Shown here one piece after another: positions 1-63,979 of a stretch of 64,000 nt of DNA (its first letter is position 1; each line of letters starts with the position of its first letter). A program made the translations under genes and the position numbers. The notes under the pieces were generated by a model. It did not search any database and was not told the origin of the DNA. It was given only the letters and a program-made list of their open reading frames with translations. This stretch comes from an uncultured Desulfovibrionaceae bacterium (GTDB lineage Bacteria; Desulfobacterota; Desulfovibrionia; Desulfovibrionales; Desulfovibrionaceae), in NCBI GenBank assembly GCA_944325195.1, contig CALUZB010000005.1:24011-88010 (forward strand). Direction: 5' to 3'.

Positions 1-1170
1 GATGCCCTTTTTTTCTCCGGTAAATCCAAGCCCCTCTTCCGTAGTGGCCTTCACCGCCACTGCTGTGCGCGGAAGGTGCAGCAGTGAGGCCACATTTTTG
101 GCGATACACTCCTTCCAGGGAGAAATTCTGGGAATTTGCGCGATTATGGTCAGATCCACATGGGTTACCACTACCCCGGCCGCCTGAACGCGGTCGAGCA
201 CTTCCGACAACAGAATACCGCTGTCTATATTATCATAGGCGGCATCAGTATCCGGAAACAGTTCACCAATATCACCTTGGGCCAGACAACCCAGCAAAGC
301 ATCGGTCAGCGCGTGCAGCAGCACGTCGCCATCGGAATGGGCAATGACCTCCGGACCGCCGGCAATGGGCACACCGCCCAGTTTCAACGGCCTTCCCGGT
401 CCATATTTGTGCACGTCATACCCAAACCCGTTGCACGGCAAAAGCGGCGCGGGCGCCGAATGCTGCCGGAGCTTCTCCAGATCACCGGGGTGAGTGATTT
501 TAAGGTTGTCAATCTCCCCTTCCACTACTTCCACCGCCATACCCAACGCCTCCAGCAAGGCGGCGTCGTCGGTAACCGTCAGATTTTCCATTTCCGCTTC
601 CAGATGAGCCCGGCGCAAAGCCGCAAGCTGAAATCCCTGGGGCGTCTGCACCGCGCGCAAACCGTCACGCGGCGGGGTGGCCGTCACATGACAGACGGCG
701 TCGCTGCCCGCCGAAGTAACGGCAGACACCATTTTAATCGTATCCACCACTTCAATACCGGGAATTACCGCCAAGGCACCGGCCTCAAGGCGATCGCACA
801 CCCGATTGATCAGGCGCGGGCTCACAAAAGGCCGGGCCCCATCGTGCACCAGAATATGCGTACATTCCGACGGAAGCGCCTGCAGGCCCGCGCGCACTGA
901 ATCCTGCCGCCGCGCCCCGCCTGCCGCCACCCGCCAAGGCACGCCCAAGTCGTATCCGGCAATCAACCCGCGCAACTCATGTTCACATTCAGCAAGCAAG
1001 GCGGGCGGAAACACAAACACCAAACCGCTGATGCGGGCTACCCGGGCCATGCGGCGGGCACAGGCAAAATACAGCGGCCCGCCCTCAAAATCCAGAAACT
1101 GTTTCGGACAGCCCAACCCGGCAAGCCGACTGCTGCTTCCGGCCGCCAGAATAATCCCCCAGATGTTCAT
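1..1170 (-). CDS. ispDF: Bifunctional IspD/IspF (MEP cytidylyltransferase / MEcPP synthase); 3' end cut by the window edge
   Basis: Absent from the ORF track because no stop lies in the window. My minus-strand translation from the ATG at 1170-1168 gives MNIWGIILAAGSSSRL...ILVHDGARPF (IspD), then GYDVHKY...AHSDGDVLLHALTDA...ATTEEGLGFTG (IspF motifs). Confidence 0.9.
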   Translation of the reverse strand, partial: MNIWGIILAAGSSSRLAGLGCPKQFLDFEGGPLYFACARRMARVARISGLVFVFPPALLAECEHELRGLIAGYDLGVPWRVAAGGARRQDSVRAGLQALPSECTHILVHDGARPFVSPRLINRVCDRLEAGALAVIPGIEVVDTIKMVSAVTSAGSDAVCHVTATPPRDGLRAVQTPQGFQLAALRRAHLEAEMENLTVTDDAALLEALGMAVEVVEGEIDNLKITHPGDLEKLRQHSAPAPLLPCNGFGYDVHKYGPGRPLKLGGVPIAGGPEVIAHSDGDVLLHALTDALLGCLAQGDIGELFPDTDAAYDNIDSGILLSEVLDRVQAAGVVVTHVDLTIIAQIPRISPWKECIAKNVASLLHLPRTAVAVKATTEEGLGFTGEKKGI

Positions 1171-1365
1171 CAAAATTCCTTTATGGTTTGAGTCTCCCCA
1201 AAAGCGGGAAAGAAACAATTGCCGCGTCGGCTTCCCCGACAGACTCATTTTCTGTAACCCCGCTCAAGGGGCAATCCGCGCACCCCCTATCCCTCGGCTG
1301 CGGGAAGCTCAATTTGCGGCTGGAGCGACTGTGGCCTGAACTATCGTCCTTATCCTTTAAATTAT

Positions 1366-11422: not shown

Positions 11423-11722
11423 CGGCTTAACCTCTAAAATAAGGCAAATTTGTATGGCTCAGCCCGCGGTCGGCTCTGTCTGCCGATTGAGCAAGCCAAC
11501 CGGCTCCTGTCCCGCATTTTTCCGGGCGCGCTTCCGCCGCCTGCTTCAGCCCATATCGGCAATGACCGGAAAGGGAAAAGACGATGCAGCAAATGTCGCG
11601 GGCTTATTGTTGCCTCGCCTTGTGGACGGAAATTGCGGAAACAGACGTTTCATCGGCTTAAATCCTGTCAACCCATTCTTCCCCTGTTTAGGGCGGTTTC
11701 AGACCATTAGAGGAAAAATTCG

Positions 11723-12805
11723 ATGAAGAAATTGCAGTTAAAACGCATTGGCGGCCTGGCGGCCCTGGTTTGCGCAATTGCGGGCCTGAGCGCCTGCGCG
11801 ACCGGGGGCGGACGTTCCGGCTCTGATGTTAATTCTCGCATCAGTCAGTTGGAAAGCCGGGTGAACACCATCAGCACTCAGATTGACGGCACCCAGTCGG
11901 CGGAAGTGTGGAGCCGGATGCAGAGTATGGAAGGCGACCTGAACATTGTGCGCAATCAGATGAACGACCTGAGCCAGCGCATGAGCGGCCCCAAAGGTAA
12001 TGAAGTGCTTTCGGCAAACCAGCGCCTCGACCGTATGGAAGCCGCCTTGAAGGAAATCTCCACCCGTCTGGGCATCACGGTGGAAGCCATGGAAGAGCCC
12101 TATACCCCCGCGCCCGCGCCAGGCCCCGAGCAGATGTATAACAACGCCGGGGCAACCGCCGGAACAGCCGCTCCCGCCCTGGCCCCCGCGGGAGAAGCCG
12201 GTTCAACCCCAACCACCCCCACCGGCATTCAACAGCCGGGCGCCACTCAGGTGATCAATTCCGACGGCACAGTTACCGTGCTGATTAACGGCGAGCCCCA
12301 GCGCGTGCCCATTGCCCCGGGCGCCGTGCCGGGTCAGGCTAATCCGCCGGCTGCCACTCCTCAGTCCGGGGCGGATGCCGGAGCAGGCGCGGGCGGCGTG
12401 ATGACCGCCCCGACCGGCGGCGGCTCTGCCGATGTGGCCCAGAACCTGTATAATCAGGGCCTGGAGCTGTTCAACAAATATCAGTATAACGATGCCCTCA
12501 CCTGCTTTAAGGATTTCACCGATAACTATCCCGAACATCGACTTACCTCCAACGCCTGGTTCTGGCAGGGCGAATGCAGCTATCAGCTCAAAGACTACCC
12601 GGCCGCGGTGGTGGCCTACCAGCGGGTGATTACCGATTACCCCGATAACAATAAGTACGTCTCTTCCCTGCTTAAGCAAGGCATGGCTCTGGCGGCCAAC
12701 GGAAACCGCGAGCAGGCTAAAGTGCGTTGGCGGGAAATAACCACTCGTTTCCCGGACAGTCCGGAAGCTACCCGGGCCAAGCAATTGCTGGCCGGGAAGG
12801 CTTAA
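11723..12805 (+). CDS. TPR lipoprotein, YbgF/CpoB-like (coiled coil, P/A/G-rich linker, C-terminal TPRs)
   Basis: It has a lipobox (LSACA), an N-terminal coiled coil and C-terminal TPR repeats (YNQGLELFNKYQYNDALTCFKDF...WFWQGECSY). Confidence 0.7.
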   Translation: MKKLQLKRIGGLAALVCAIAGLSACATGGGRSGSDVNSRISQLESRVNTISTQIDGTQSAEVWSRMQSMEGDLNIVRNQMNDLSQRMSGPKGNEVLSANQRLDRMEAALKEISTRLGITVEAMEEPYTPAPAPGPEQMYNNAGATAGTAAPALAPAGEAGSTPTTPTGIQQPGATQVINSDGTVTVLINGEPQRVPIAPGAVPGQANPPAATPQSGADAGAGAGGVMTAPTGGGSADVAQNLYNQGLELFNKYQYNDALTCFKDFTDNYPEHRLTSNAWFWQGECSYQLKDYPAAVVAYQRVITDYPDNNKYVSSLLKQGMALAANGNREQAKVRWREITTRFPDSPEATRAKQLLAGKA

Positions 12806-14284: not shown

Positions 14285-14447
14285 CCCCGGGCTTTTCCCG
14301 AAAGCTGTTTGACCGACTTAAGACGAATTGGCCGGAGGCCGACAGATCGGTCGGAGCGATGTGCGGCAGACGTAACCAGAAACGCCTTTACGGTTTACCA
14401 CCTCTCCCCATACCCCCCAAAAAAACAGAAGGTGATGGGGGTGTTCA

Positions 14448-14616
14448 TCAAAAATTCATTTGCGGTTTGAAACCTCCCGATGATTTGACAAAACTTTGAG
14501 CCGGTAATATCCTTTTGTCCTAACCTCTCGCCTTTCGGGAGAGGCAATCAGCACGCCCCCTATCCGTCGGCGGCTTCAGTCAGTCGGCGGATAGGGGGCG
14601 TGTGGATTGAAACATG
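14448..14616 (-). repeat. Mosaic multi-hairpin repeat, copy A (inverted orientation; lacks one hairpin module)
   Basis: The reverse complement aligns along its whole length with the copies at 20926, 54419 and 57605. The plus strand ends in ...GTCGGCGGATAGGGGGCGTGTGGATTGAAACAT. Confidence 0.9.
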
Positions 14617-14972
14617 CTGTTGGAAAGAAGACCGGACCGCTTCGCTGCTGAAAGCCTTTTTCCGTAAGGGGTAATCCGCCCTTCCCTGTCCCTGTCCGCC
14701 GCCCGGCTTAGGCTACTGCTTACGGACAGACTGATCGGGGGTTGAGACTGCACACTCAGGCCATACAGGACGCTCAACCGGAAACGGAAAGGCGGGCCAA
14801 TCTACTTTGAAAGCGGACTTGCTCCGGGGGCTGTGTAAACTGCTCCCGTACCGAAAAAGCGGGAAACTGCTTCTCCCTGCGAAATGCAAACAGGGCAATG
14901 ATTATTATTGAAAATGTCATTCCCATCTGAAAGCGCCCTGAAAGCAGGTCTGGAGCAACAAGAGGTATTAAG

Positions 14973-20602: not shown

Positions 20603-20925
20603 ATAAGCTCCTGTAAAATGTATTCCTATTACCTGAAAATTTGCATTATTTTTGACATTTTATCTCATATTTGTCAAGTTTTCAGGGCAGAATTCGCTAT
20701 TTTTGCGGATTACAGGCCTGTCCGGTACATGCTTTGCCGATGCAAAGCCAACGGCCGGAGCGGATTAACTTTTAAGACTTAATCTGCATATGATTTCTCA
20801 AGAACTTCCCGCAAAAGTTTAGCCTCTTAAGATTTCCTTAAGCTTCATATGGTTATATCCAACTCAAGGAAGAAGGAAAGTCAACTAATCATCTGATTCA
20901 AGCAATCTGATATATGGAGGTTAAT

Positions 20926-21106
20926 ATGTTTCAATCCACAGTCGCCCCACCCGCCGACTGACGGAAGCCGCTTACGGATAGGGGCGTGCGGATTACCTCT
21001 CGCCTTTCGGGAGAGGTTACGGCAAAAGGATATTATCGGCTCAAAGCTTTGTCAAATCATCTTTTCCCCCTGAAGGGGGGAGGTTTCAAACCTCAAAGGA
21101 GTTTTT
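20926..21106 (+). repeat. Mosaic multi-hairpin repeat, copy B
   Basis: ATGTTTCAATCCACAGTCGCCCCACCCGCCGAC...CGGATAGGGGCGTGCGGATT, then CCTCTCGCCTTTCGGGAGAGG...TTTGTCAAATCATC...CCCCCTGAAGGGGGG, GAGGTTTCAAACCTC, AAAGGAGTTTTT. Confidence 0.9.
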
Positions 21107-21108
21107 TT

Positions 21109-21528
21109 ATGAACAGAACTTTTCTTTCCCGCGTGAAAACTCTTTGCGCAGCCGGCGCTCTGGGCGCTTTGCTGCTGTTCGCGGTCGGCTCTGAAAACGC
21201 CGCGGCCCAGTTCCAGGGCAATACTGCTCAAAACGCCCCGGCTATGGGCGGCTTCACCGGCCCGGCGACCGCTCCCAACACTGTGGCCCAGGCGAAAAAA
21301 ATGTGGGACGACACCCCGGTTGTCCTCAGAGGCAACATCGTCAACTCGCTGGGCGGTGAATACTACACTTTCCGCGATCAAAGCGGGGAAATCATGGTTG
21401 AAATAGACCACGACGTGTGGTGGGGCGTGCAGGTTGACCCTAAAGATACCGTGGAAATTTACGGAGAAGTGGAAAAGGATTTCGGAGAAGCTGTTAAAAT
21501 AGACGTAAAGCGGCTTATCAAGCGCTGA
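21109..21528 (+). CDS. ygiW: YgiW/YdeI-family OB-fold (BOF) periplasmic stress protein
   Basis: The start [19 protein letters not shown] carries a signal peptide. Sequence: [43 protein letters not shown]...[11 protein letters not shown]. The track ORF at 20986 runs through the repeat and is not credible upstream of this Met. Confidence 0.85.
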
Positions 21529-26618: not shown

Positions 26619-26910
26619 GAAGCAAAAACAACGGTGTGCAGCCTGCTCTGAAAAACCTTGCTGCGCGCCGTTTTTCTGTACCGGCAGACATAGCGCCGTT
26701 GAGGAGTCTTCAGGCCCGCCGCCACTGAGCAGAACAGACGCGTGGCCGGTAGCTGAACCGTCCGAATGACTGTGCCTGTTCCGCCGATTCCGCTGTCCTG
26801 TAACGGATAATCCGGACAGGCGACGGTCATCCCCGGGCTGCACTCCCCCGGGCAGAACGCTCACCTTCAGTTTGAAAAGGTACCTGTTCCAAGCATTATC
26901 CCGCCTTTCA

Positions 26911-26939
26911 TCCAAAATTCCTTTGTAGTTTGAAACCTC
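26911..26939 (-). repeat. Solo fragment of the mosaic repeat (right-end module)
   Basis: TCCAAAATTCCTTTGTAGTTTGAAACCTC matches TCAAAAATTCATTTGCGGTTTGAAACCTC of copy A. Confidence 0.6.
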
Positions 26940-27138
26940 GGCCTTCAGGCCAAGCTTAAGCCCCAGCCCGCGCCAGCACTCAAACCGGGCGCCCGGCCAC
27001 AACCCAAGACTGGAGAATTGCTTGTCAACACTACAGGGACAACACCCGACATTTCCCCCCCCCCTCCAACCGCCAACCTCTGCTCAGCAGCAACCGCCAA
27101 AGCGGATTTCAAAATTCAGTTGACATTCACTTTCAATT

Positions 27139-30796: not shown

Positions 30797-31004
30797 TGCG
30801 GCCTCTCCCTTTTAAGAAATATATCTTCCCAAAGCGTCAAATCTCTTTCAGTCAACCCACAAACGTATAAAGGTCTTAGTACCATATCATTGAAGGAATT
30901 TCCTTAAAACCTCTTTTCGTAATTTCCAACATATTACTCTGAAGCACTTGTCAAAATCAGATATGTGACTTATTCTTATTTGAGATAATCAATCAGAATG
31001 CCTT

Positions 31005-31365
31005 GGGGGCGCCCTGGTTTCGACGGGGGTGCAGAAACCAAAGCGGCAGGTCGAGGCGCCGCTGGCCTCGTAAAAAGCGGCAAAAATGTAATTGCCAACG
31101 ACGATTACGCATACGCTTACGCTGCTTAATTAAGCAACGGGTCCGGGTGAATGACGCCTGATAGTTCAGTCGGATTTTAAAAAATTAATCAGGCTGGCTG
31201 CAACGGGGGCCGGTTGCCGTTGCAGTGAGATTCGACAATCGGCTGGCCGCCGACCGCCCGGTCAGGGGCAAAACCGGCTGCGAGACCTTAAAACCTGACC
31301 TAAACCTGTAGAAGCTTTGCGTGGAGCATTCTCGGACGCGAGTTCGATTCTCGCCGCCTCCACCA
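31005..31365 (+). ncRNA. ssrA: tmRNA (SsrA), tag ANDDYAYAYAA
   Basis: 5' GGGGGCGCCCTGGTTTCGACGGGGG. 3' GGACGCGAGTTCGATTCTCGCCGCCTCCACCA, with a G3:U pair. The tag ORF is GCC AAC GAC GAT TAC GCA TAC GCT TAC GCT GCT TAA at 31094-31129. Confidence 0.95.
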
Positions 31366-38312: not shown

Positions 38313-38714
38313 CCGCCCCCAAGGAATACCCCTGAGGACTGTTTGGAGGACTGACTGATAAATTCACATCAAAAATTGCTCACATCTTCCGCTGCTGTTT
38401 TCCTTCCGACTGTCCGTTCTTCCGGGCAGACAACGCCTGATATACTCCGGATTGCTTGTTCCCTCTGTTCTGTTTGTTTCAATCCTTAATCCGCCTGTCC
38501 GTCTGCTTGCGCCGTAACTGCCGGACAGAGTTTGCGGGCTTGCCCCCGCATTTCGGAAAGAGTCAAGGAAAACAATTTCCTCAATTTCGCCGCTTTCTCA
38601 ATGACTTTCTTCACTTCAAGGAGTGAGTTGCAACCCCAAGAGGAGTTCCGGGAAACAGATAATCACCTGTAAGCACCCAGCCAAGGCGCCCTCTCCAACA
38701 CCTGTTCCTGCAGC

Positions 38715-53010: not shown

Positions 53011-54231
53011 CTAGCGCCTGCAGGTGCAGGTTCCGGCAAGCAGGTGACCCATTTTTTCCTTTTTAGTGCGCAGATAGGCCTCATTGAACGGACTCTGGCC
53101 CAACTCCAGCGGCACCCGCTCCACAACGTTCAGGCCGTAGCCTTCCAGGCCGATGATCTTTTTGGGGTTGTTGGTAAGCAACCTGATTTTCCTGAGCCCC
53201 AAATCCAGCAACACCTGAGCCCCGATGCCGTAGTCGCGCAAATCTTCCTTGAACCCCAGCCGCAAATTCGCGTCCACCGTATCCAGCCCCTGATCCTGCA
53301 GGGCATAGGCCTTGATTTTGTTGGCCAGACCGATGCCGCGCCCTTCCTGACGCATATACAGCACCACCCCGCGCCCGGTTTCGCTGATTGCCTGCATGGC
53401 GGCGTGCAGTTGCGGGCCGCAATCACAGCGCAGGGAAGCAAAGGTGTCGCCGGTAAGGCACTCGCTGTGCACCCGCACCAGTACCGGCTCACTGCCGCTG
53501 ATATCGCCTTTAACCAGGGCCACCGGAGTATCTTCCCCCAAATTGGACTCATAGGCAATGATTTTGAACTCGCCGAAAACTGTGGGCAAGGCAGCTTCGC
53601 CAACCCGCTTAATCGACGTTTCCCCCAGACTGAGCCGGTATTTTATCAAATCGCGGATTGTGGCGATTTTCAGATGATGTTCCGCTGCAAACCGTTCCAG
53701 ATCGGGCATGCGCGCCATTTTCCCGTCTTCCCGCAACACCTCGCAAATTACCGCCGCCTGCTTCAGCCCGGCCAGACGGGCCAGATCGGTGCTGCCCTCG
53801 GTTTGCCCGGCCCGGGTCAGCACGCCGCCCTCCTGAGCGCGAATGGGAAAAATATGGCCGGGGCTGACCACATCGCGGGGCCCGGCATCGTCGGCCACAG
53901 CCCGCAAAATGGTGGTGGCCCGGTCGGCCGCGGAAATTCCGGTGCTCACGCCCTCGCGGGCCTCAATGGACACCGTGAAGTTGGTGCCGAATTTGGACTC
54001 GTTGCTTTGGGTCATCATCGGCAGTTCAAGCCTGTCCACCAACTCGCCGCTCAGGGCCAGACACACCAGGCCCCGGGCATGGGTAACCATGAAATTAATC
54101 ACTTCCGGGGTAACGAACTCGGCCGCTATGGTGATGTCGCCCTCGTTCTCCCGGTCTTCATCATCCACCAGAATAATCATTTCGCCGTTTTTAATCAGCT
54201 GAACGGCTTCAGTAATCGAGCAAACGCCCAT
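53011..54231 (-). CDS. ribBA: Bifunctional DHBP synthase / GTP cyclohydrolase II
   Basis: The start [11 protein letters not shown] has a GGAGAG SD. Sequence: [11 protein letters not shown]...[10 protein letters not shown]...CDCG...[11 protein letters not shown]. Confidence 0.95.
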
Positions 54232-54418
54232 TTCAATCTCTCCGCCAACGCAAATTGTCATATCTGCCCGGTCTGCGTTTATCCCGGGCGAACGCGGGCC
54301 GCCCAACCGGCCCGACTTAACACCGGGAACCGGTTACAGGGTGCGCCTCACCCGGCTCCGCCCCCGGTTTATTGGCCGGGCCTGGCCCGCTTAAGCGGCT
54401 TAATTAAACCCGTTATTG

Positions 54419-54602
54419 ATGTTTCAATCCACAGTCGTCCCCAGCCGCCGACTGACTCTCGCGCGCGGCGGACAGGGGGCGTGCGGATTGCCTCTCCCTC
54501 AAGGGGGAGGTTACAAAAAAAGATTTCATCGGCTGCGCCGTATTGTCAAGAACTTTTTCCCGCCTTTCGGAGGCGGTTTTAAACCATAAAGGAATGTTTG
54601 AT
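54419..54602 (+). repeat. Mosaic multi-hairpin repeat, copy C (most diverged; overlaps the ribE 3' end)
   Basis: ATGTTTCAATCCACAGTCGTCCCCAGCCGCCGAC...GGACAGGGGGCGTGCGGATTG, then CCTCTCCCTCAAGGGGGAGG...TTGTCAAGAAC...CCGCCTTTCGGAGGCGG...AAAGGAATGTTTGA. Confidence 0.85.
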
Positions 54603-55289
54603 AAAAAAGTCCGGACCAAGCCCCGTCCCTCTGCTTTCAGCACTGCCCTGAGCCCGGCCGCTGCCCGGCCCGGCCGCCGGATCCGCCTGATGCAGGCGAA
54701 GCATTTTCGCCACATACTTGCCCAGCAAATCCACTTCCAGATTAGCGGCATGGCCCGGGCGCCAGAAACGGGCGGTTGTGGCACTCCAGGTTGCGGGAAT
54801 AAGGTTCAGCTCAAAATAACCGGGGCCGCAGGCGTTGACCGTAAGACTGATTCCATCCACACAAACAGAGCCCTTGTTCACAATGTACATATCCAGGGCC
54901 GGGTCACAGGCGAATCGAACCAGATGTGAAGCGGAGCGGTTTTCCAGGCGACTTACTTCCGCCAGACCGTCCACATGCCCACTGACAATATGCCCGCCCA
55001 GACGCTGCCCCAAGCACAGGGCCGGCTCAAGATTCACCCTGCTGCCGGGGGTCAGTCGGCCCAGAGTGGTGTTGCTTAGAGTTTCCTCGGAAGCATAAGC
55101 GCTGAAAGCCAGAGTAGTGCCGATGAAGCGGGTTTTTTCAGCGGTGAGACACACCCCGTTCACGGCCACGCTGTCGCCGGGCAACACCGCGTCCGCCGCC
55201 AGAGGGGCATTGATTTCCAGGCGCAAATCCCGCGCCTGCCTGGAAACTTCCTTAACCACGCCTAGCGCGGCAACCAGCCCTGTAAACAT
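54579..55289 (-). CDS. ribE: Riboflavin synthase alpha chain, with an atypical C-terminal tail of about 30 aa
   Basis: Sequence: MFTGLVAALGVVKEV...SVAVNGVCLT...VNLE...GHIVSGHVDG. The last 8 codons and the stop lie inside repeat copy C. Confidence 0.92.
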   Translation of the reverse strand: MFTGLVAALGVVKEVSRQARDLRLEINAPLAADAVLPGDSVAVNGVCLTAEKTRFIGTTLAFSAYASEETLSNTTLGRLTPGSRVNLEPALCLGQRLGGHIVSGHVDGLAEVSRLENRSASHLVRFACDPALDMYIVNKGSVCVDGISLTVNACGPGYFELNLIPATWSATTARFWRPGHAANLEVDLLGKYVAKMLRLHQADPAAGPGSGRAQGSAESRGTGLGPDFFIKHSFMV

Positions 55290-55447
55290 TCAGCCCCCTT
55301 ACAATTCCTTTGTAAGTTAAACCGCCCTGCCGGGGCAAACCAAAGCGTTCACTGGTGAGCCCCCGGTCGCCAATCGGCTTTGCCGGTAATTATCTTCCGC
55401 CCGCTCGTAAACACGAAGCTTCCACCCGACGCATGGAAGCAGCGCGC

Positions 55448-56806
55448 TCAGTCCGCGCTTGAAGCCGCCTGCGGATTGGAACAAGCATAGCGGGAAATGA
55501 TATCCCCGCCCAGACTGCCTACCTGCAGCAACTGCAATCGGAGCGCATCGTCCGGCGCTGTTGGGGCGAGCCCGTCAAACAGATTCACAGCCTGCCGGTC
55601 GGCCATGAGCAACGGGGCCTGATGCAGCTCGAACTCCTGCACCAGACCGGCCTGGAGCAAACTCAGCCCCAAACGGCCGCCGCCTTCACACAAAATGCGG
55701 TGCAGACCAAACTGAGTGCGCAGGCGCGCCAGAATTTCCCGCAGGTCTTGCCGGCTGAAGCCGCCGCCCGTCCGGCCCGGCTCCGCGACGGACTGACTGC
55801 TGCCGCTTAAGCTGAAGCAAAGCAGTTCGGCTCCATACACCGCCAGCAGCTCCCGTTGTCCGGCCAGCGGAGAATTGCTTGCGGTGACGAAAATCAGATC
55901 TCGCCCACGTTCACGGAGCAGCCGGGGCAAAGCCGCCGGGTTCAGGGCCCGATTGCCCAGCACCACCGCCACCGGCTGACTGACAGTTTGGGGCCACTCC
56001 AAATCCGGCCAGAGGTAAGCGGACCGGGCGCCGCTCCGGCCGGAGAGCCGGAATGCGTCAGGCGGGGACACACCGTTCAAACCAATGCCCTTTTCAGATG
56101 CGGGCACCGCGCCCACCCCGGAAGCAGCCACGGGGGCAGAACCGGGAAAAGGAGTCGGGAAATCGGCCGGACGCACGTTGAGCAAAGGATCATCCGCCCG
56201 CAGAGTGCCGCCGCCAATCAACACCGCGTGGTTTCTGCTCCGCAGCAGGTGCACCCGCTCGCGGGCGGCGGGACCGGTAAGCCAACGGGATTTGCCGGTG
56301 CGGGTGGCAATAAATCCGTCCAGACTGGCGGCCATTTTCAGAGTGAGAAACGGCAAATCGCCGGTCTGCCAGTGCAGGAAATCGGCAATCAGCTCTTTGC
56401 AGGTCTGCGCCAGCAACCCCACTTCCACCCGCACGCCGTGCCGCCGTAAAAAATCCGCTCCCCCGGCCGCTTTTGGGGTGGGATCGGCGCACCCGACAAC
56501 AACATGGCGGATACCGGCGCGCAAAATCGCCTCAGTGCAGGGCGGGGTTTTCCCGTGATGATTGCACGGCTCAAGGGTAACCAGCAAAGTGCAATGTTCC
56601 GGCTCCACCCCTCTGCGGGCGGCGTCGGCCAGACAATTGATTTCAGCGTGCGGCCCGCCGTATTCCCGGTGCCAGCCCTCGGCCACGATTTCGCCGTTGC
56701 GCACCAGCACCGCCCCTACCGCCGGATTGGGAGCAACCGCCGGATATCCCCGTTGCGCCAGCAGAATAGCCCGGCGCATGGCCCGTTCCCAAACAGGCCT
56801 GCTCAT
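55448..56806 (-). CDS. ribD: Bifunctional riboflavin deaminase/reductase RibD, with an insertion of about 50-60 aa in the reductase domain
   Basis: Sequence: HAEINCL...[13 protein letters not shown]...[10 protein letters not shown]...LCEGGGRL. Confidence 0.93.
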
Positions 56807-57285
56807 GGGGCAATCACCGGAAAAGCAGCGGGGTCAACGCACAGGGTTTGAAAAGGAATGCCCGACTGCCCGGCCATTTCAGCGGCCAGTTCATCCGGGT
56901 AGGGATTGGCGAAATAAACGGCGCTGACCCCACAGTTGATCAGCATTTTGGTGCAGATCAGACAGGGCTGATGTGTACAGTAAATCTCCGCCCCGGCAAG
57001 GGAAATGCCGTGCACTGCGGCCTGGATAATCACGTTCTGCTCCGCGTGCAGGCCGATGCACACCTCATGCCGCTCGCCGGACGGAATGCCCAACTGCCGG
57101 CGCAGACAGCCGGTATCCAGGCAATGAGGAATGCCGGACGGAGCGCCGTTGTAGCCTGTGGCGAGAATACGCCGGTCTTTCACGGCCAATGCCCCCACCT
57201 TGCGCCGCAAGCAGGTAGAGCGTTGCGCCACGATATAAGTGATTTGCATAAAATATTGCGGCCAGGGCAAACGTTGCACGCTCAT
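56803..57285 (-). CDS. dCMP / cytidine-deoxycytidylate deaminase family protein
   Basis: 160 aa. Sequence: HAEQNVI...[13 protein letters not shown]. It overlaps the ribD start by 4 nt. Confidence 0.88.
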
Positions 57286-57604
57286 TCACGAGCCTCCGGG
57301 CTGAATTGTCTGAAACTGGAATAACCCGCTTTGAACAGCCGGGCGGGCGGCAGCATCTTCAGAGCATACCCCAATCGGACTGCACCCGCAAGCGGAACAG
57401 GCGTCCGGGCCGGAAAGCTCTGAACGTATTTCCGGAAGCCTCTGCCGGACGACTATTCGGAACGCTCCGCCGAAAACATGCGGGACGGCCGTTCACAGCG
57501 GCTTTACCATCACGCCGGGCAAACTCCCGGCGAAGTCATTTATGGGAATGACTTCTGAAAACACACAGACTGCTGTGCAGCCGGAACAGATCCACCTGAA
57601 TTAC

Positions 57605-57784
57605 ATGTTTCAATCCACAGTCGCCCCACCCGCCGCCCGCCTCTCGCCGCGGACGGATAGGGGGCGTGCGGATTGCCTCTCGCCTTTCGGGAGAGGTTAC
57701 GACAAAAGGATAGGCTTCACCGTTTTGTCAAATCATCTTTTCCCCCTGAAGGGAGCGGTTTCAAACCGCAAAGGAATTTTTGAG
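57605..57784 (+). repeat. Mosaic multi-hairpin repeat, copy D
   Basis: ATGTTTCAATCCACAGTCGCCCCACCCGCCG...CGGATAGGGGGCGTGCGGATTG, then CCTCTCGCCTTTCGGGAGAGG...TTTGTCAAATCATC, CCCCCTGAAGGGAG, GCGGTTTCAAACCGC, AAAGGAATTTTTGA. Confidence 0.9.
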
Positions 57785-58299
57785 CAACCCTCTGTTTAAG
57801 TGCAGGCAACTCTGACAAACTGCGGTAAAAAGGGATACCTTTACATACGGCGGACCGGGACAGCGGACACAACAGCGCTTGCAGTAAAGCCGACACATCT
57901 CTCCCGGCGCGGACACACCGCGTGCTTCAACTACGCTTATCGGCAGTAAGCGCCGTATTCGCCGTCAAACAAGCGGCGACAGTATCACCGGCGGGCGGCA
58001 AAGCCCCTGTCCATATTCGACGACAGGGGCTTGAAAACAAATCTCATCAGAGCCGTCCCGCCGCAAAAATGCTCTGACAGCGGGCGCAACTCAAACCGAT
58101 CAGACGCAATCGCCCCCAGGCTACTGGTATCGCGCCGATCTGACCGCCGGACGGGTTTGCTGTTCCGCCTGGATCTGCCTGACGTCAACGGTCAGTTCAA
58201 TGTCGTCTGCCGCGGGCCGACACCCGGCACACCCACGAGCAGCCCGGCCCGGCTCATCTCAATGGTCAGCTAAACTGCGTCCGCGCGCGAGCCCCACCC

Positions 58300-59538
58300 C
58301 TACCAGGCAAATAAAGGATAAGCGCTGGCGAACCGGGCCACCTCGCGGGAAATATCCTTGAGTTTGGTCTGGTTGCCGATGTTAGCCAGGGCGTCGCTGA
58401 TCCAGCCGGCAATCTGCTCCATTTCCTTTTCCTTCATTCCCCGGGTGGTGAGCGCCGGCGTGCCCAGCCGTAACCCGGAAGTGATGAAGGGGGAACGGGT
58501 TTCAAACGGAACGCTGTTCTTGTTGGCGGTAATCCCGGCCTCATCCAGGGCCAGTTGCGCGTCCTTGCCGGTGTATTCCTTTTCAGTCAGGTCAACCAGA
58601 ATCAGGTGATTATCGGTTCCGCCGGAAACCAGTTTGAACCCGGCGTCCTGAAGCCGGGCAGCCAGCACCGCCGCATTTTTCACCACCTGTTCCTGGTATG
58701 TTTTATAAGCGGGGCGCAAGGCCTCGCCCAAGGCCACGGCTTTGGCCGCAATCACATGCATCAGCGGCCCGCCCTGCATACCGGGGAAAATCATGCTGTT
58801 CAGCGGCTTGGCGAACTCGTCTGAGGAGAGGATCATCCCGCCGCGCGGCCCGCGCAAGGTTTTATGGGTGGTGGTGGTGGTTACGTGCGCGTGAGGGACC
58901 GGGGAAGGATGCAGCCCGGCGGCCACCAGCCCGGCAATGTGGGCCATATCCACCACCAGCTTTGCTTCCACCATATCGGCGATCCGGCGGAAACGCTGGA
59001 AATCAATCACCCGCGGATAGGCGCTGGCCCCGGCCACAATCAGTTTAGGGCGGTGTTCCTTAGCCAAAGCCTCCACCTGGTCATAATCAATGGTGCCGGT
59101 TTCCCGGCTCACGCCGTAACCCACAATCTTATAGAAGCGGCCGGAGAAGTTCACCGGACTGCCGTGGGTAAGGTGTCCACCGTGGGACAAATCCATTGAA
59201 AGAATGGTGTCGCCGGGTTCAATCAGCGAAAAATACACGGCCATATTCGCCTGTGAGCCGGAGTGCGGCTGTACGTTGACATATTCCGCGTCGAACAGCT
59301 TCTTAGCCCGGGCAATGGCCAGATTTTCCACCTCGTCCACATATTCGCAACCGCCGTAATAGCGTTTGCCCGGGTAACCCTCGGCATATTTATGGGTAAG
59401 CACGCTGCCTTGCGCCTGGCGCACTGCTGTGGATACAAAATTCTCCGACGCGATAAGCTCGAGCTTGGAAGTTTGGCGCTCAACTTCCCGCACAATGGAA
59501 CAGCCGACTTCCGGATCCTGAATCAACAATTCTTCCAT
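58300..59538 (-). CDS. glyA: Serine hydroxymethyltransferase
   Basis: The internal start [11 protein letters not shown] is preferred over the track start at 59634. Sequence: ELIASENF...[11 protein letters not shown]. Confidence 0.96.
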
Positions 59539-59554
59539 GACACATCCTTCCCGC

Positions 59555-60799
59555 TTAACGGTATTTCTTATACAAAATGCTGGCGTTAGTGCCGCCGAAC
59601 CCCGCCGAATTGCACAGGGCATATTCCGGAGCAAGCTTTTCAGGGCCGTTGCCCATGTAGTTCAAATCGCATTCCGGATCGGGCTCTTCATAGTTAATGG
59701 TGCCGGGAACCAGGCCGGTTTCCAGGGCTTTTACGGTGAATACGCTCTCCATGCCCCCGGCCGCGCCCAGCAGGTGCCCGGTTTGCGACTTATTGGCGCA
59801 AATGGCGATGTTATATGCGTGCTTGCCGAACACAGCCTTAATGGCCTTGGTTTCCATCAAATCGTTGAGCTGGGTGGAAGTGCCGTGCGCGTTGATGTGG
59901 GTGATTTGCTCCGGCGCTATCCCCGCTACCTGAATGGCCTGGCGCATGGCCTGGGCCATGCCCTCGCCGCTTTCAGAGGGCGCGGTCATATGATAAGCGT
60001 CGCCGCTGGCTCCGAACCCGATTATTTCCGCGTAAACAGTCGCTCCCCGCGCCTGAGCCGATTCCAGCGATTCCACCAGCAAAAACCCGGCTCCCTCGCC
60101 CAACACAAACCCATCCCGGTTTTTATCGAACGGGCGCGACGCCTTTTGCGGGTCATGATTATGGGAAGTGGACAGGGCCTTCAAAGCAGTGAACCCGGAA
60201 ACTCCCATAGGGGTAATGGTCGACTCCACCCCACCGGTAATTACCGCATCGCACCGGCCCAGCATCACCTCCATTGCCGCATAGCCAATGGCGTGCAGAC
60301 CGGAAGAGCAGGCGGAAGTCATTACCAGATTGGCGCCTTTGGCGCCGGTGGCAATGGACACCTGCCCGGGCGCCATGTTTGAAATCAGCATGGGGATCAT
60401 GAACGGCGAGACTTTATTCGGCCCGCTTTCCATCAGTTTGGTGTGGAACTGTTCAATGGTGCTTAAACCGCCCAACCCCACGCCCAACATCACTCCGATC
60501 TTCGCGGCGTTTTGTTCGGTAATTTCCAGACCGGCGTGCTCAAGCAGCATTTTCCCGGCCGCCACGGCGTACTGGGAAAAAATATCCATGCGCCGCGCTT
60601 CTTTCGGATTGATATACGGCTCAGGTTTGAAATTCTTTACTTCACCGGCAATGCGCGCGGCGTATTCGCTGGCGTCGAACCGGGTAATTGGGCCGATTCC
60701 GGATTTACCCGCCAGCAAATTATCCCAGGATTCACCAAGGGTGTTTCCAAGCGGAGTAATCGCGGAAAGCCCCGTTACCACAACACGTTTTATCTGCAT
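59555..60799 (-). CDS. fabF: Beta-ketoacyl-ACP synthase II
   Basis: The start [11 protein letters not shown] is preferred. Sequence: SACSSG...HGTST...[10 protein letters not shown]. Confidence 0.95.
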
Positions 60800-62077: not shown

Positions 62078-62749
62078 CTTCCTTCCATTTCCTGTTCTGA
62101 AGCGGTTATTGTCCGAAATTACGCGCCGGATTCAGCCCCTTCTCGAAGCGAAACGAGCTGAAACGGCTGAAACGCGCAAAACCGGCTCCTCTCCCACAGC
62201 CGCCCTGCTTTGCGAAGCAGGACTGTCCGCGGCGGCCGCGCCGCAAATCGGCGCTGCCGATTTGGCTCAGGCTCAAATTTGTTTATAATCCAAACCACAA
62301 GCAACTGCAACCGGGAATTTCAAGCCGGGCTGCCGGAAGCGGCGGCTGGCGAAAGCAGGCCCAACCGGGAACAACGGAAGTTAAGCGTTGACGAATAAGG
62401 CCGGTCCGCCCACCTGAGTTCAATCCTCTTACATATAGTGGAATATCCAAAAATGCAAGGGAATACCTTATTTATAAACTCCGGAACAGCACAGATTGAC
62501 CGGCCCTGCTCGAATTATGATAAATATTGAACTATTTTCATTCTTCCCTCCCTCTTATCTACCATAAACCCGGATAAAAGTACTAAAAAGTACCTTTACA
62601 GCTCACTACCGCCCCTTTTTGGTGAAAAATGATTGACAAGCCGCCCCGCCAATGATTAGCTTACCTGTAATCCCAGTGGGAGCCCCAGCCGCAACCGAAG
62701 CAGGTTGATGAACAACCGGCGGCCGGAGCTGATGTGGGGATTTTCAGAC

Positions 62750-63979
62750 ATGATCATTAAAATAGCAACTAAAGACCTTGTGCCGGGCATGAAAGTGGTG
62801 GATCTTGACCTGCCCGGTCAGGCCGACCCGTTTTTATACGCCAAAGAGGGCGTGCTGCGCACCCGGAAAGAGGTGGATCAGGTACTGGTGGAAGGGTATC
62901 TTGATGCCTATATAGATACCGTCGCTCCGGAATCGGGGGATCTGGAAGAGGAAATAGAGGAAAGCATTCCGCCGCAGGAGCAGGCCGGCCCCTATAAAAA
63001 CCGGCTGCCGCCCAAAGTTGCGCTTGAGAAGGAACTGCCGGCGGCCCGCGCCCTGTTTGACCACTCGGTGCATTTTGCCCGCGACGCTCTGACAGGTCTG
63101 TGCCAGGGCAATGAACTTCCGCTGGAAGCCGGCAACGCAATCGTTGACGCCATCTTCAACAGCATCACCCGGAACTACAACGCTTGGCTCGGCCTGGTGA
63201 AACTGCGCCGACGCGATGAATACACCTATACCCACTGCATCAATGTTTGTGTGCTGGCCCTGCTGCTTTCAGCCCAGCTCGGAAATGATGAGTCAATCAC
63301 AAAAAAGGTGGGGCTGGCCGGACTGTTCCATGATATAGGAAAAGTGTTCATCCCTGAGGAAATCCTGAACAAAAACGGTCCGCTCACCTCTGAGGAGTTC
63401 ATGGTGATGAAGAAACACCCGGAGCTGGGTTGCCAATATGTGAAACGCTACAATCTGCCCGATGAGATTGTCAGCGGCATCCGCGATCACCATGAAAAAC
63501 TGAACGGCAAAGGCTATCCACGCGGGCTTATGGGGGCTGAAATCAGCGAAACCGCCCGCCTGATCAGCATTGCGGACATCTATGACGCCCTGACCAGCCG
63601 CCGGGTATATAAAGACCCCATGCTGCCCCACCAGGCTTTGTGCCTGATGTATTCCATGTGCGGCGACGAGCTTGACGAACAGCTGTTTGCCGCCTTCATC
63701 CACTCGCAGGGCATCTATCCGGTGGGCAGTGTGGTGGAGTTGTCTTCCGGCTGGCGCGGAGTGGTGCTGCAAATCAACCCCAACAAGCCCCTCTGCCCAC
63801 AAGTGGCCCTGATACGCAGCCCGTTGGGCCACTTCCGAATGGGCGAGGTAGTGGATTTGTCCGCGCAGTCACAGGTAAAAATCACCAAAGTAATGACCCC
63901 GGTGGAAGCGGGCGTTGACCCGGCACTGGTCTTTCCCGGCTGCAACACCCCGCCGATACAACAGTATGTAAGCTCCTGA
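62750..63979 (+). CDS. HD-GYP domain c-di-GMP phosphodiesterase with a DUF3391-like N-terminus
   Basis: The start MIIKIATKDLVPGMKV is preferred. Sequence: HDIGKVFIP...HHEKLNGKGYPRGL. Confidence 0.88.
   Translation: MIIKIATKDLVPGMKVVDLDLPGQADPFLYAKEGVLRTRKEVDQVLVEGYLDAYIDTVAPESGDLEEEIEESIPPQEQAGPYKNRLPPKVALEKELPAARALFDHSVHFARDALTGLCQGNELPLEAGNAIVDAIFNSITRNYNAWLGLVKLRRRDEYTYTHCINVCVLALLLSAQLGNDESITKKVGLAGLFHDIGKVFIPEEILNKNGPLTSEEFMVMKKHPELGCQYVKRYNLPDEIVSGIRDHHEKLNGKGYPRGLMGAEISETARLISIADIYDALTSRRVYKDPMLPHQALCLMYSMCGDELDEQLFAAFIHSQGIYPVGSVVELSSGWRGVVLQINPNKPLCPQVALIRSPLGHFRMGEVVDLSAQSQVKITKVMTPVEAGVDPALVFPGCNTPPIQQYVSS

Follow-up and report, generated by a model that had tools for sequence, protein, structure and literature searches.

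The presence of sigma70-like promoters on small bacterial repeats is well established, both for the Correia elements (CREE or NEMIS) of Neisseria and for other MITEs such as MITEAba12, BrickBuilt, QMITE1 and SonMITE_1 (PMC10969869). These repeats are short, non-coding, multi-copy and mostly intergenic, often lying just upstream of genes, and their sigma70-like promoters are able to drive neighbouring genes and give rise to hairpin-rich transcripts. Correia elements are bounded by 26-bp terminal inverted repeats, and their subtypes carry two promoters. Promoters that face outward are known on insertion sequences as well, in which an inward-facing promoter near one end is also usual. Insertion sequences encode a transposase, and they are mobile DNA whose complete or partial promoters read into the flanks (reviewed in PMC9330008).

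Other described systems are connected with CRISPR-Cas. Racrs and solitary repeat units are lone CRISPR-repeat-like hairpins situated away from cas genes, with a predicted promoter shortly upstream and, in the host, CRISPR-Cas of the same subtype (Camara-Wilpert et al. 2023, PMC10651486). A predicted promoter is often found immediately before a solitary repeat unit, and its presence within 250 bp was a criterion for selecting such units. Racrs are single genes on viruses or plasmids, often beside acr genes, and their inhibition of CRISPR-Cas has been demonstrated (PMC10651486). CreA RNAs, crlRNAs and mini-arrays (PMC10120712; bioRxiv 10.1101/2024.12.27.630466) are likewise repeat-like units outside the array, with their own promoter and a potential to load into Cascade; they are found inside or beside cas loci and have two repeat-like units around a spacer that matches a promoter.

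Here we analyse a dispersed repeat found in a 64-kb stretch of DNA (the window) from the genome of a Mailhella-like gut sulfate reducer of the Desulfovibrionaceae, following an earlier note in which a promoter-like sequence was recognized within several copies of the repeat. The element resembles Correia elements and other MITEs in size, copy number and placement, its promoter and hairpin-rich transcript being predicted here from sequence, but it has no significant terminal inverted repeat and a single internal site on one strand; unlike Correia elements, it has a CRISPR-repeat mimic of the host type as its end, and its left end donates a Shine-Dalgarno sequence and an ATG to genes. It shares with Racrs the lone repeat-like hairpin, the predicted promoter and the matching host system, yet there are about 50 copies in the chromosome, an anti-repeat pairs with the handle to form a stem of far greater length, and any activity of the unit is putative. 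As with CreA and crlRNAs, it has a predicted promoter of its own outside the array and could load into Cascade, but its copies are dispersed and have no second repeat downstream; unlike insertion sequences, the element is non-coding, and a parent element was not noticed among the hit lists examined. We judge it an evenly balanced question whether the two conserved hexamers are the -35 and -10 of a working sigma70-type promoter, built into the repeat of about 185 nt as a conserved part.

A dispersed, multi-hairpin repeat family

An nhmmer profile seeded with four copies from the window (A to D) and iterated once gave 48 non-overlapping matches (E<1e-5) in the 2.48-Mb, 27-contig genome. The repeat is short (<300 bp; about 185 nt at full length), non-coding, dispersed and composed of several hairpins. 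Among 60 relatives searched it was also found in two other genera of the same family, such that 3 of 61 genomes (the window's own included) bear the element; further copies are present in several Mailhella and Desulfovibrionaceae assemblies and on a few IMG/VR contigs, and most copies are chromosomal. An Rfam search with the element returned no match at the gathering threshold and none beyond noise at E<=1.

The consensus has no significant terminal inverted repeats (left 40 nt compared with the reverse complement of the right 40 nt: local score 8, equalled by 8.5% of shuffles); in place of these, it has a direct repeat, TGGTTTGAAAC / TGGATTGAAAC. A CAT conserved at both ends could be a 3-nt target-site duplication, although filled and empty sites were compared at ispG only, where the copy is too diverged to decide on a duplication. 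A Y1 (IS200/IS605-type) transposase was considered as the mobilizer and the source of strand specificity and was rejected, having no match in the window's genome and only fragments in three others (G004, G018 and G001).

Coding potential within the element was also considered. A sense-strand open reading frame starting at the ATG in GATGAAATCC is open in the consensus, but the A/B subfamily lacks this ATG, and differences between copies in the length of stems and loops shift the frame, so the candidate was dismissed. At the left end, the element supplies a Shine-Dalgarno sequence and an ATG to neighbouring genes: in 31 of 78 left ends (about 40%), the CAT of a conserved TTCATC is the start codon of a leftward open reading frame (>=80 aa).

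A promoter-like module in the copies of the window

Copy A occupies positions 14442 to 14615 of the plus strand (nhmmer E=2e-45, supported by alignments); hairpin 2 is missing from it, and hairpin 4 has the opposite orientation to that in copies B and D. The earlier note had reported a TTGACA and a TATCCT separated by 17 nt in copies A and B, and this is what is read directly from the sequence, at 14485-14513 of the plus strand in copy A (TTGACA 14485-14490, TATCCT 14508-14513) and at 21055-21027 of the minus strand in copy B (TTGACA 21055-21050, TATCCT 21032-21027). Copy B (20925-21114, minus strand) lies in a divergent site between a BOF/YgiW gene (ATG at 21109) and an HdeA-like gene; the latter, which lies below the copy, has its own, better-placed candidate promoter (TTGACA-18-AAAAAT at 20677-20648).

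Copy D (57604-57787, minus strand), between glyA and the dCMP-deaminase/ribD genes, retains both hexamers with a 13-nt spacer, as had been noted before (TTGACA 57731-57726, TATCCT 57712-57707; 57731-57707 in all). The shortening is due to a 4-nt deletion, and with a spacer of this length the promoter site is probably dead. Copy C (54417-54607, minus strand), between ribE and ribBA, had been described as having TTGACA with a poor -10; there is indeed no good -10 at 17 nt from its TTGACA (54549-54544), but at 18 nt a TGn followed by AATCTT (54525-54520) is present, which is the family-consensus form of the module.

There are five further copies in the window. An old, diverged copy, 48% identical to the consensus (62584-62737, plus strand, in a divergent site), retains TTGACA (62633-62638), an 18-nt spacer and TAGCTT (62657-62662). 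A full copy at 1164-1345 (plus strand), antisense to both of its neighbours (a minus-strand open reading frame ending at 1248 and the minus-strand RNase P RNA), has a degenerate module (TTGCCG, no -10, score 4.9). A truncated copy at 11610-11729 (minus strand; model positions 2-121) has no repeat-like end and lies antisense in a co-directional site, with its left end abutting the start of a TPR/YfiO-like gene; it has TTGACA and no -10 (score 6.5). A second old, diverged copy, in a convergent site (38474-38647, minus strand), has TTGAGA and a weak -10 (score 8.8), and a left-end fragment is found at 26906-26949.

Strength of the module as a predicted promoter

The hexamers of copies A and B match the -35 consensus at 6/6 and the -10 consensus at 4/6 positions, and a consensus scanner ranks the two sites first in their 8-kb neighbourhood, with 10/12 matches. 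All genome positions were scored with a -35/-10 matrix made from classical E. coli frequencies, with spacer weighting and a bonus for TGn, and its calibration in this organism is rough; no usable promoter consensus for Desulfovibrio was found in a literature search. On this scale the A/B form scores 14.5 bits. Such a score is attained at 1.6e-5 of the positions in the genome, which corresponds to a chance of about 0.5% per random 185-nt stretch (both strands). The family-consensus form scores 11.3 bits, reached at 2.6e-4 of positions, or about 8% per random 185-nt stretch (both strands). The best sites within 250 nt upstream of 1032 genes have a median of 9.1 bits, with the 75th and 95th percentiles at 11.1 and 14.0, compared with a median of 7.2 for random windows; the A/B score is therefore above the 95th percentile of gene-upstream sites, and the consensus form is near the 75th. 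In the tmRNA gene, used as a rough calibration, TTGTCA-17-TATTCT is situated 34 nt before the 5' end.

When 88 copies, drawn from the window's genome and from others, are compared, the module most often consists of TTGACA, an 18-nt spacer (15 nt plus TGn) and AATCCT, and so combines an exact -35 with an extended -10 (-35 6/6, -10 3/6). The spacer of this form contains a small CGGC..GCCG hairpin. In the young subfamily to which A, B and their relatives belong, GATAATATCCT replaces GATGAAATCCT, with the result that the spacer is 17 nt, the TG is lost and the hexamer is improved to TATCCT. The subfamilies differ in their -10 (TATCCT, AATCCT, AATCAT, TACCGT, TAGCTT, CATCCT and AATAAT, with TGn preceding AATCCT, TACCGT, AATCAT, CATCCT and AATAAT), but they keep (T/A)AnnnT, the second letter remaining A and the sixth T, at a spacing of 17-18 nt and often with TGn. 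When the -10 found at 16-18 nt was compared with composition-matched shuffles, it exceeded 90% of them in 17 of 35 cluster representatives; the Fisher-combined p value for these tests, 5e-10, is overstated by the kinship of the copies.

Uniqueness and conservation of the module

When both strands of 67 near-full copies were scanned, a single consistent promoter-like site emerged, at model column 59 in the sense direction, with a median of 11.1 bits and a score of >=9 bits in 60% of the copies. An antisense promoter, which could serve genes starting at the left end, was not found in these 67 copies, no antisense column having a median above 1.4. The exact TTGACA is present in 34 of 58 copies, and at least five of its six positions are matched in 47 of 58. 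In the 20 most diverged copies, whose mean identity to the consensus is 60%, the TTGACA columns are 84% conserved, on par with both termini of the element, and the hexamer is intact in 8 copies where 1.1 would be expected. The 30-column segment comprising -35, spacer and -10 is the least variable part of the element in length, being within +-1 nt in 93% of copies (sd 1.2), compared with 67-85% (sd 2.4-5.6) elsewhere. Conservation between copies partly reflects descent from master copies and not selection at each locus. The persistence of the module across diverged copies adds to the case that this putative promoter exceeds what chance would produce.

These observations bear on the possibility that the module is a leftover of a parent element (for instance, the promoter of an insertion sequence transposase after internal deletion), unselected and only incidentally active. 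An inward promoter near one end would be typical of an insertion sequence, and the lost spacing of copy D would fit such an origin. Against it stands the intact TTGACA at about seven times the neutral-decay expectation in the oldest copies, together with the fact that the spacer segment is the most length-constrained of all; nor was a longer parent element noticed among the nhmmer hit lists or fetched loci. We consider this origin very unlikely.

A different alternative takes the conservation as real but assigns it to something other than initiation: the TTGACA block and its fixed distance to GCCGATG and TTTT would be kept as a recognition site for a mobilizing enzyme or a host DNA-binding protein, or by the fixed geometry of a whole element acting as single-stranded DNA or RNA, the -10 likeness being incidental and no RNA starting internally. 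In its favour, the -10 is weak in most copies (3-4/6), and the best-conserved letters near it are GCCGATG (the 3' arm of the spacer hairpin plus TG) and TTTT rather than A2 and T6 of the hexamer. On the other hand, TTGACA is the exact -35 consensus, divergent subfamilies have each kept the (T/A)AnnnT motif at promoter spacing, and no other position or strand of the element shows such a pattern. No candidate enzyme was found either: there is no Y1 transposase in the genome and no significant terminal inverted repeat in the consensus. On balance this alternative seems possible but rather unlikely, and further evidence on it comes from the strand constraint and the orientation of copies described below.

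Constraint on one strand of the element

The stems (hairpins 1-4 and the long 3' hairpin) were named by hand on the profile columns, and mismatches were then counted. In the stems of 69 cluster representatives, there are 260 G.U pairs and 141 A.C pairs. Where copies depart from the consensus, C>T is commoner than G>A in paired columns (308 vs 178) but not in unpaired ones (132 vs 148; odds ratio 1.94, p=1.5e-5). Because a general mutation bias would also have affected the unpaired columns, the stems are kept on the GGATTGAAAC-sense strand, either as RNA or as single-stranded DNA, and tolerance of G.U far above A.C marks this strand as the functional single strand of the whole element. Such a test of wobble asymmetry is a cheap and general pointer to the functional single strand of hairpin-rich repeats.

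The asymmetry is equally strong in hairpins 1-3, upstream of the predicted transcription start (141:65), and in hairpins 4-5 (244:150), and this suggests a single-stranded form of the whole element rather than specifically an RNA born at the promoter. The idea of selection at the RNA level, raised in the earlier note, thus gains a sense-strand constraint (the excesses of G.U and of C>T) but not one specific to a promoter-born transcript. That the constraint spans the whole element, hairpins 1-3 included (141 C>T vs 65 G>A), also favours conservation of the module for a reason other than initiation, since a single-stranded species of the whole element would exist with or without an internal promoter.

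In the hand-named 3' structure 82% of cells are paired, compared with 38-50% when the structure is slid along the alignment, and covariation is modest (20 double-change cells, equalled by 17 of 500 shuffles); RNAalifold, applied to 27 diverse copies, recovered only part of hairpin 4. The RNA predicted for copy A folds at -69.5 kcal/mol (z=-5.7).

Orientation of copies relative to genes

Genes were called with a codon-usage ORF picker trained on the long open reading frames of the genome (1894 genes, 79% coding), and because starts are those of the longest reading frame, distances are approximate. The names given earlier to the genes flanking the copies (sulfatase-like, RibBA, dCMP deaminase/RibD and HdeA-like) proved right, and a BOF/YgiW gene can be added to them. 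In its co-directional sites (A, C and D) the element had been said to lie always in the sense direction of its neighbours, and in the divergent site (B) to point to the HdeA-like gene; this is true of these four copies, but the copies at 1164-1345 (plus strand) and 11610-11729 (minus strand) are antisense, and the co-directional sites of the window divide 3:2 and not 3:0. With split hits merged, co-directional sites of the genome account for 19 copies in sense and 13 in antisense orientation; 10 others are divergent and 3 convergent. The genome-wide count that had been proposed as a check does not bear out strict co-orientation (19:13 sense to antisense, p=0.38), and the "always" of the window is a small-sample impression.

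Pooling with the other genomes gives 46:27 in favour of sense (63%, p=0.034), and the right end faces the start of a gene in 68 cases against 41 (62%, p=0.012), p values that are optimistic because the data are non-independent, related genomes possibly sharing insertions. Convergent sites are rare (8 of 99). Within the window's genome, no significant departure from background is seen in how copies are shared among intergenic types (p=0.08-0.13). Copy orientation is near-random; there is at most a 60:40 tendency in the direction expected of a rightward promoter. An explanation through the replication strand was examined and rejected, the strand of copies showing no clear link with the sign of the local GC skew (11/5 vs 15/17). 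GC skew barely follows gene strand in this genome (r=0.12).

The quality of the predicted promoter is not related to its setting. Scores of >=9 bits are found in 33 of 52 copies pointing at a gene start and in 18 of 29 pointing at a gene end (p=1.0), and the median is 11.3 both in copies that donate a start codon and in the rest. Decay of the promoter according to context can accordingly be set aside, antisense or convergent copies and start-codon donors being no different from the others. This independence of context is what neutrality predicts, and so what a leftover of a parent element would show; it equally suits a module conserved for reasons other than initiation, as does the placement of many copies at sites in which transcription coming from outside would run into a strong outward promoter. 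For genes that start at the left end of the element, transcription must enter it antisense, head-on to the promoter, which argues against a strong constitutive promoter.

The proposal of a portable outward promoter made in the earlier note can be retained as regards a conserved, directional and correctly spaced sequence module, but not as regards a strict rule of orientation (19:13 in the genome, 46:27 pooled); overall, its observation is partly confirmed and its interpretation partly supported.

Copies placed directly before genes

Three copies lie where the predicted promoter could serve a particular gene. On contig C8, a diverged copy is situated directly upstream of ispG, inserted between the ancestral promoter and the ATG: the ancestral ispG upstream sequence, with its TAAAAT -10, is retained about 170 nt upstream, and the same-genus genomes compared at ispG have no element there. 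This copy contains the best predicted promoter of the set (TTGACA-18-TGn-AATAAT, 15.0 bits), about 50 nt before the ATG, and its degenerate GGATTGAAAC end adjoins the start codon. The copy at C19:35965-36120 takes up the whole of a divergent intergenic region, with a GNAT acetyltransferase gene on one side and an unassigned gene on the other; its TTGACT-17-TGn-AATCAT is the only promoter-like site seen facing the right-hand gene. In the window, the degenerate right end of the old copy at 62584-62737 abuts the ATG (62751) of an HD-GYP-type gene, with the promoter module about 90 nt before the ATG. The three cases are anecdotes, and they fit with use of the module as a promoter.

Resemblance of the element's end to the type I-C CRISPR repeat

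The host genome has a complete cas3-cas5c-cas8c-cas7-cas4-cas1-cas2 locus on contig C16, and after it an array in which GTCGTCCCCCGCACGGGGGCGTGGATTGAAAC is repeated 16 times. The terminal sequence of the element is ...GGGGCGACTGTGGATTGAAAC (...GGGGGCGTGTGGATTGAAAC in copy A), and its last 12 nt (GTGGATTGAAAC) together with the G-rich arm of its stem match the host repeat. Compared with that repeat, the element's stem is about three times longer, 2-4 nt are inserted between stem and handle, and the handle is paired, the handle-like GGAUUG being sequestered in the long stem with an anti-repeat. In full copies the -10 lies about 95 nt upstream of GGATTGAAAC, which places the predicted promoter within 250 bp of the repeat-like end. 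The predicted layout is that of a promoter followed by a solitary repeat look-alike, and given the resemblance of the element's end to the host repeat, the predicted transcript would be a promoter-proximal unit of this kind.

These features raise the possibility that the promoter exists to express the CRISPR-repeat-like hairpin, the RNA being bound or cut by the host's type I-C Cas5c/Cascade; it might serve as a repeat decoy (RNA anti-CRISPR-like), or else be a crRNA-like RNA guided by the flank. Several observations favour it: the complete cas locus and 16-repeat array of the host, the shared GTGGATTGAAAC and G-rich stem arm, a predicted promoter about 100 nt upstream, matching the layout published for solitary repeat units (PMC10651486), and the occurrence of some copies on IMG/VR contigs. 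In addition, cas8c is found in 3/3 element-bearing genomes (61 searched), compared with 12/36 in the family overall, but this co-occurrence is weak evidence, given the kinship of the genomes and the fact that ATTGAAAC is the ending of nearly every I-C repeat.

The same sequences contain features that are difficult to accommodate. The GGAUUG handle is paired within the long stem, with its 2-4 extra nucleotides between stem and handle; the two modules are uncoupled by deletion, as C26:20051-20178 has the repeat-like end without the promoter, and the copy at 11610-11729 has TTGACA with neither a usable -10 nor the repeat-like end; and it is difficult to see why a host with an intact system should carry about 50 inhibitors of it. 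No homology links the element to the CRISPR leader as far as the genome-wide nhmmer search extends, which gave no match on the array contig C16, the leader being AT-rich and unrelated. Expression of the hairpin for the benefit of Cas binding is thus a quite unlikely purpose of the module. The most elaborate form of this idea, in which each copy is a transcription unit (promoter, stabilizing 5' hairpin and I-C repeat mimic) and the RNAs of about 50 copies would be fed continuously to Cas5c/Cascade, as an immunity-damping decoy or as flank-guided crRNA-like RNA, we regard as highly doubtful.

Predicted transcription from the element and its significance

If the hexamers do act as a sigma70-type promoter, RNA polymerase would start about 7 nt after the -10, just before hairpin 4. 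In copy A, sigma70 geometry places the predicted start at 14519-14521 of the plus strand (6-8 nt after the -10), 5 nt from hairpin 4 (14524-14544, plus strand; assigned from the fold and pair counts), which would thus lie close to the 5' end of the RNA. The transcript would then cover hairpin 4 and the long hairpin, a mimic of the type I-C CRISPR repeat of the host; in copy A the latter occupies 14545-14613 of the plus strand, ends in GGATTGAAAC, has an anti-repeat (CAATC..) paired with ..GGATTG, and resembles the 3' half of the host repeat. As no terminator follows, transcription may read out through the GGATTGAAAC end into the flank, where its effect would be set by the landing site. Where a gene starts to the right (62% of copies), the element might provide a proximal or extra promoter and a structured 5' UTR; in sense co-directional sites it might act as an internal operon promoter, and elsewhere as a source of antisense RNA.

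As a promoter-bearing repeat, the element is a new example of a known phenomenon. It is set apart by the lack of significant terminal inverted repeats, by a one-way internal site feeding a CRISPR-repeat mimic, and by the donation of start codons and ribosome-binding sites to genes; in the literature searched, a promoter and a CRISPR-repeat mimic joined in one dispersed chromosomal repeat were not found described. If the module is inactive, it is an ordinary conserved block of a repeat. If it is active, the 2.5-Mb genome would contain dozens of extra promoters, most of them within 100-150 nt of start codons, and housekeeping genes, including ispG and riboflavin genes, would be among those affected; a small repeat would then have rewired expression on a genome scale, as Correia elements have in Neisseria, and every such transcript would contain a look-alike of the host's type I-C CRISPR repeat. 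Should these transcripts in fact supply repeat mimics to the Cas proteins, a dispersed mobile repeat would thereby be linked directly, and in function, with CRISPR-Cas.

Distribution of the element and its genomic setting

Copies of the element, a non-coding, multi-hairpin dispersed repeat of about 185 nt, are spread very unevenly over the contigs of the window's own genome (G000), individual contigs ranging in GC content from 48% to 61%. Contig C5 (124 kb, 56.6% GC) holds 12 of the 48 element hits and contig C8 a further seven, while contig C4 (736 kb, 49.9% GC) has only seven despite its size. Within the window, the riboflavin genes (dCMP deaminase-ribD-ribE and ribBA; 53011-59634) gave no FMN riboswitch match in Rfam; their two entry points are occupied instead by two element copies, C and D.

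The same genome carries a complete type I-C CRISPR-Cas locus (L001; contig C16:6700-16509), comprising cas3, cas5c, cas8c, cas7, cas4, cas1 and cas2 together with an array of 16 repeats. The leader-distal repeats of this array are degenerate (GTCGCCCCCC...), and the last one is without the GGATTGAAAC end. In the window itself, the tmRNA gene (31005-31365) has a promoter-like site 34 nt upstream (TTGTCA-17-TATTCT; 30948-30976), a useful calibrator for the organism's housekeeping promoters.

Internal rearrangements and composite copies

Hairpin 4, the stem-loop between the promoter-like module and the CRISPR-repeat-like 3' hairpin, reads CCTCTCGCCTTTCGGGAGAGG in the element sense of copy A (14523-14544 in the window) and CCTCTCCCGAAAGGCGAGAGG in that of copies B (20995-21016) and D (57675-57696). 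Because the first of these is the exact reverse complement of the second, hairpin 4 has been flipped inside the element, as if by an inversion at a palindrome.

Composite copies are found at loci L074, L103, L063 and L128 of Mailhella MAGs and at C9:37956-38321 of G000; in these, 100-190 nt of additional sequence separates the left half (to about column 107 of the element profile) from the right half (which begins near column 110), so that an insertion or additional module lies after hairpin 4 and before the repeat-like one. Copy A is directly followed, in the same orientation, by a weak, degenerate second match (window 14623-14748) that spans model positions 49-187 (E=2.6e-4) and may represent an old tandem duplicate.

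Element ends and start codons

A second handle-like motif, TGGTTTGAAAC, is present in the left part of all copies (model columns 22-32; 14461-14473 in copy A). It forms a direct repeat, with one mismatch, of the terminal TGGATTGAAAC, which gives the element a loose resemblance to a pair of repeat-like units flanking a middle of about 140 nt.

The trinucleotide CAT is conserved at both ends of the element (TTCAT..., columns 5-7; ...GAAACAT, columns 186-188). The right end can also fall exactly on a start codon (GAAAC-ATG), as it does at ispG (C8:99090-99260 of G000; L176:1590-1760), at an HD-GYP-type gene in the window (62737-62753), and in 8 of the 89 intact right ends. At such sites the GGA of GGATTGAAAC precedes the codon by 7-8 nt and resembles a weak Shine-Dalgarno sequence. 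The terminal CATs could stem from duplication of a 3-nt target (CAT/ATG), and this, if true, would account for copies landing on start codons.
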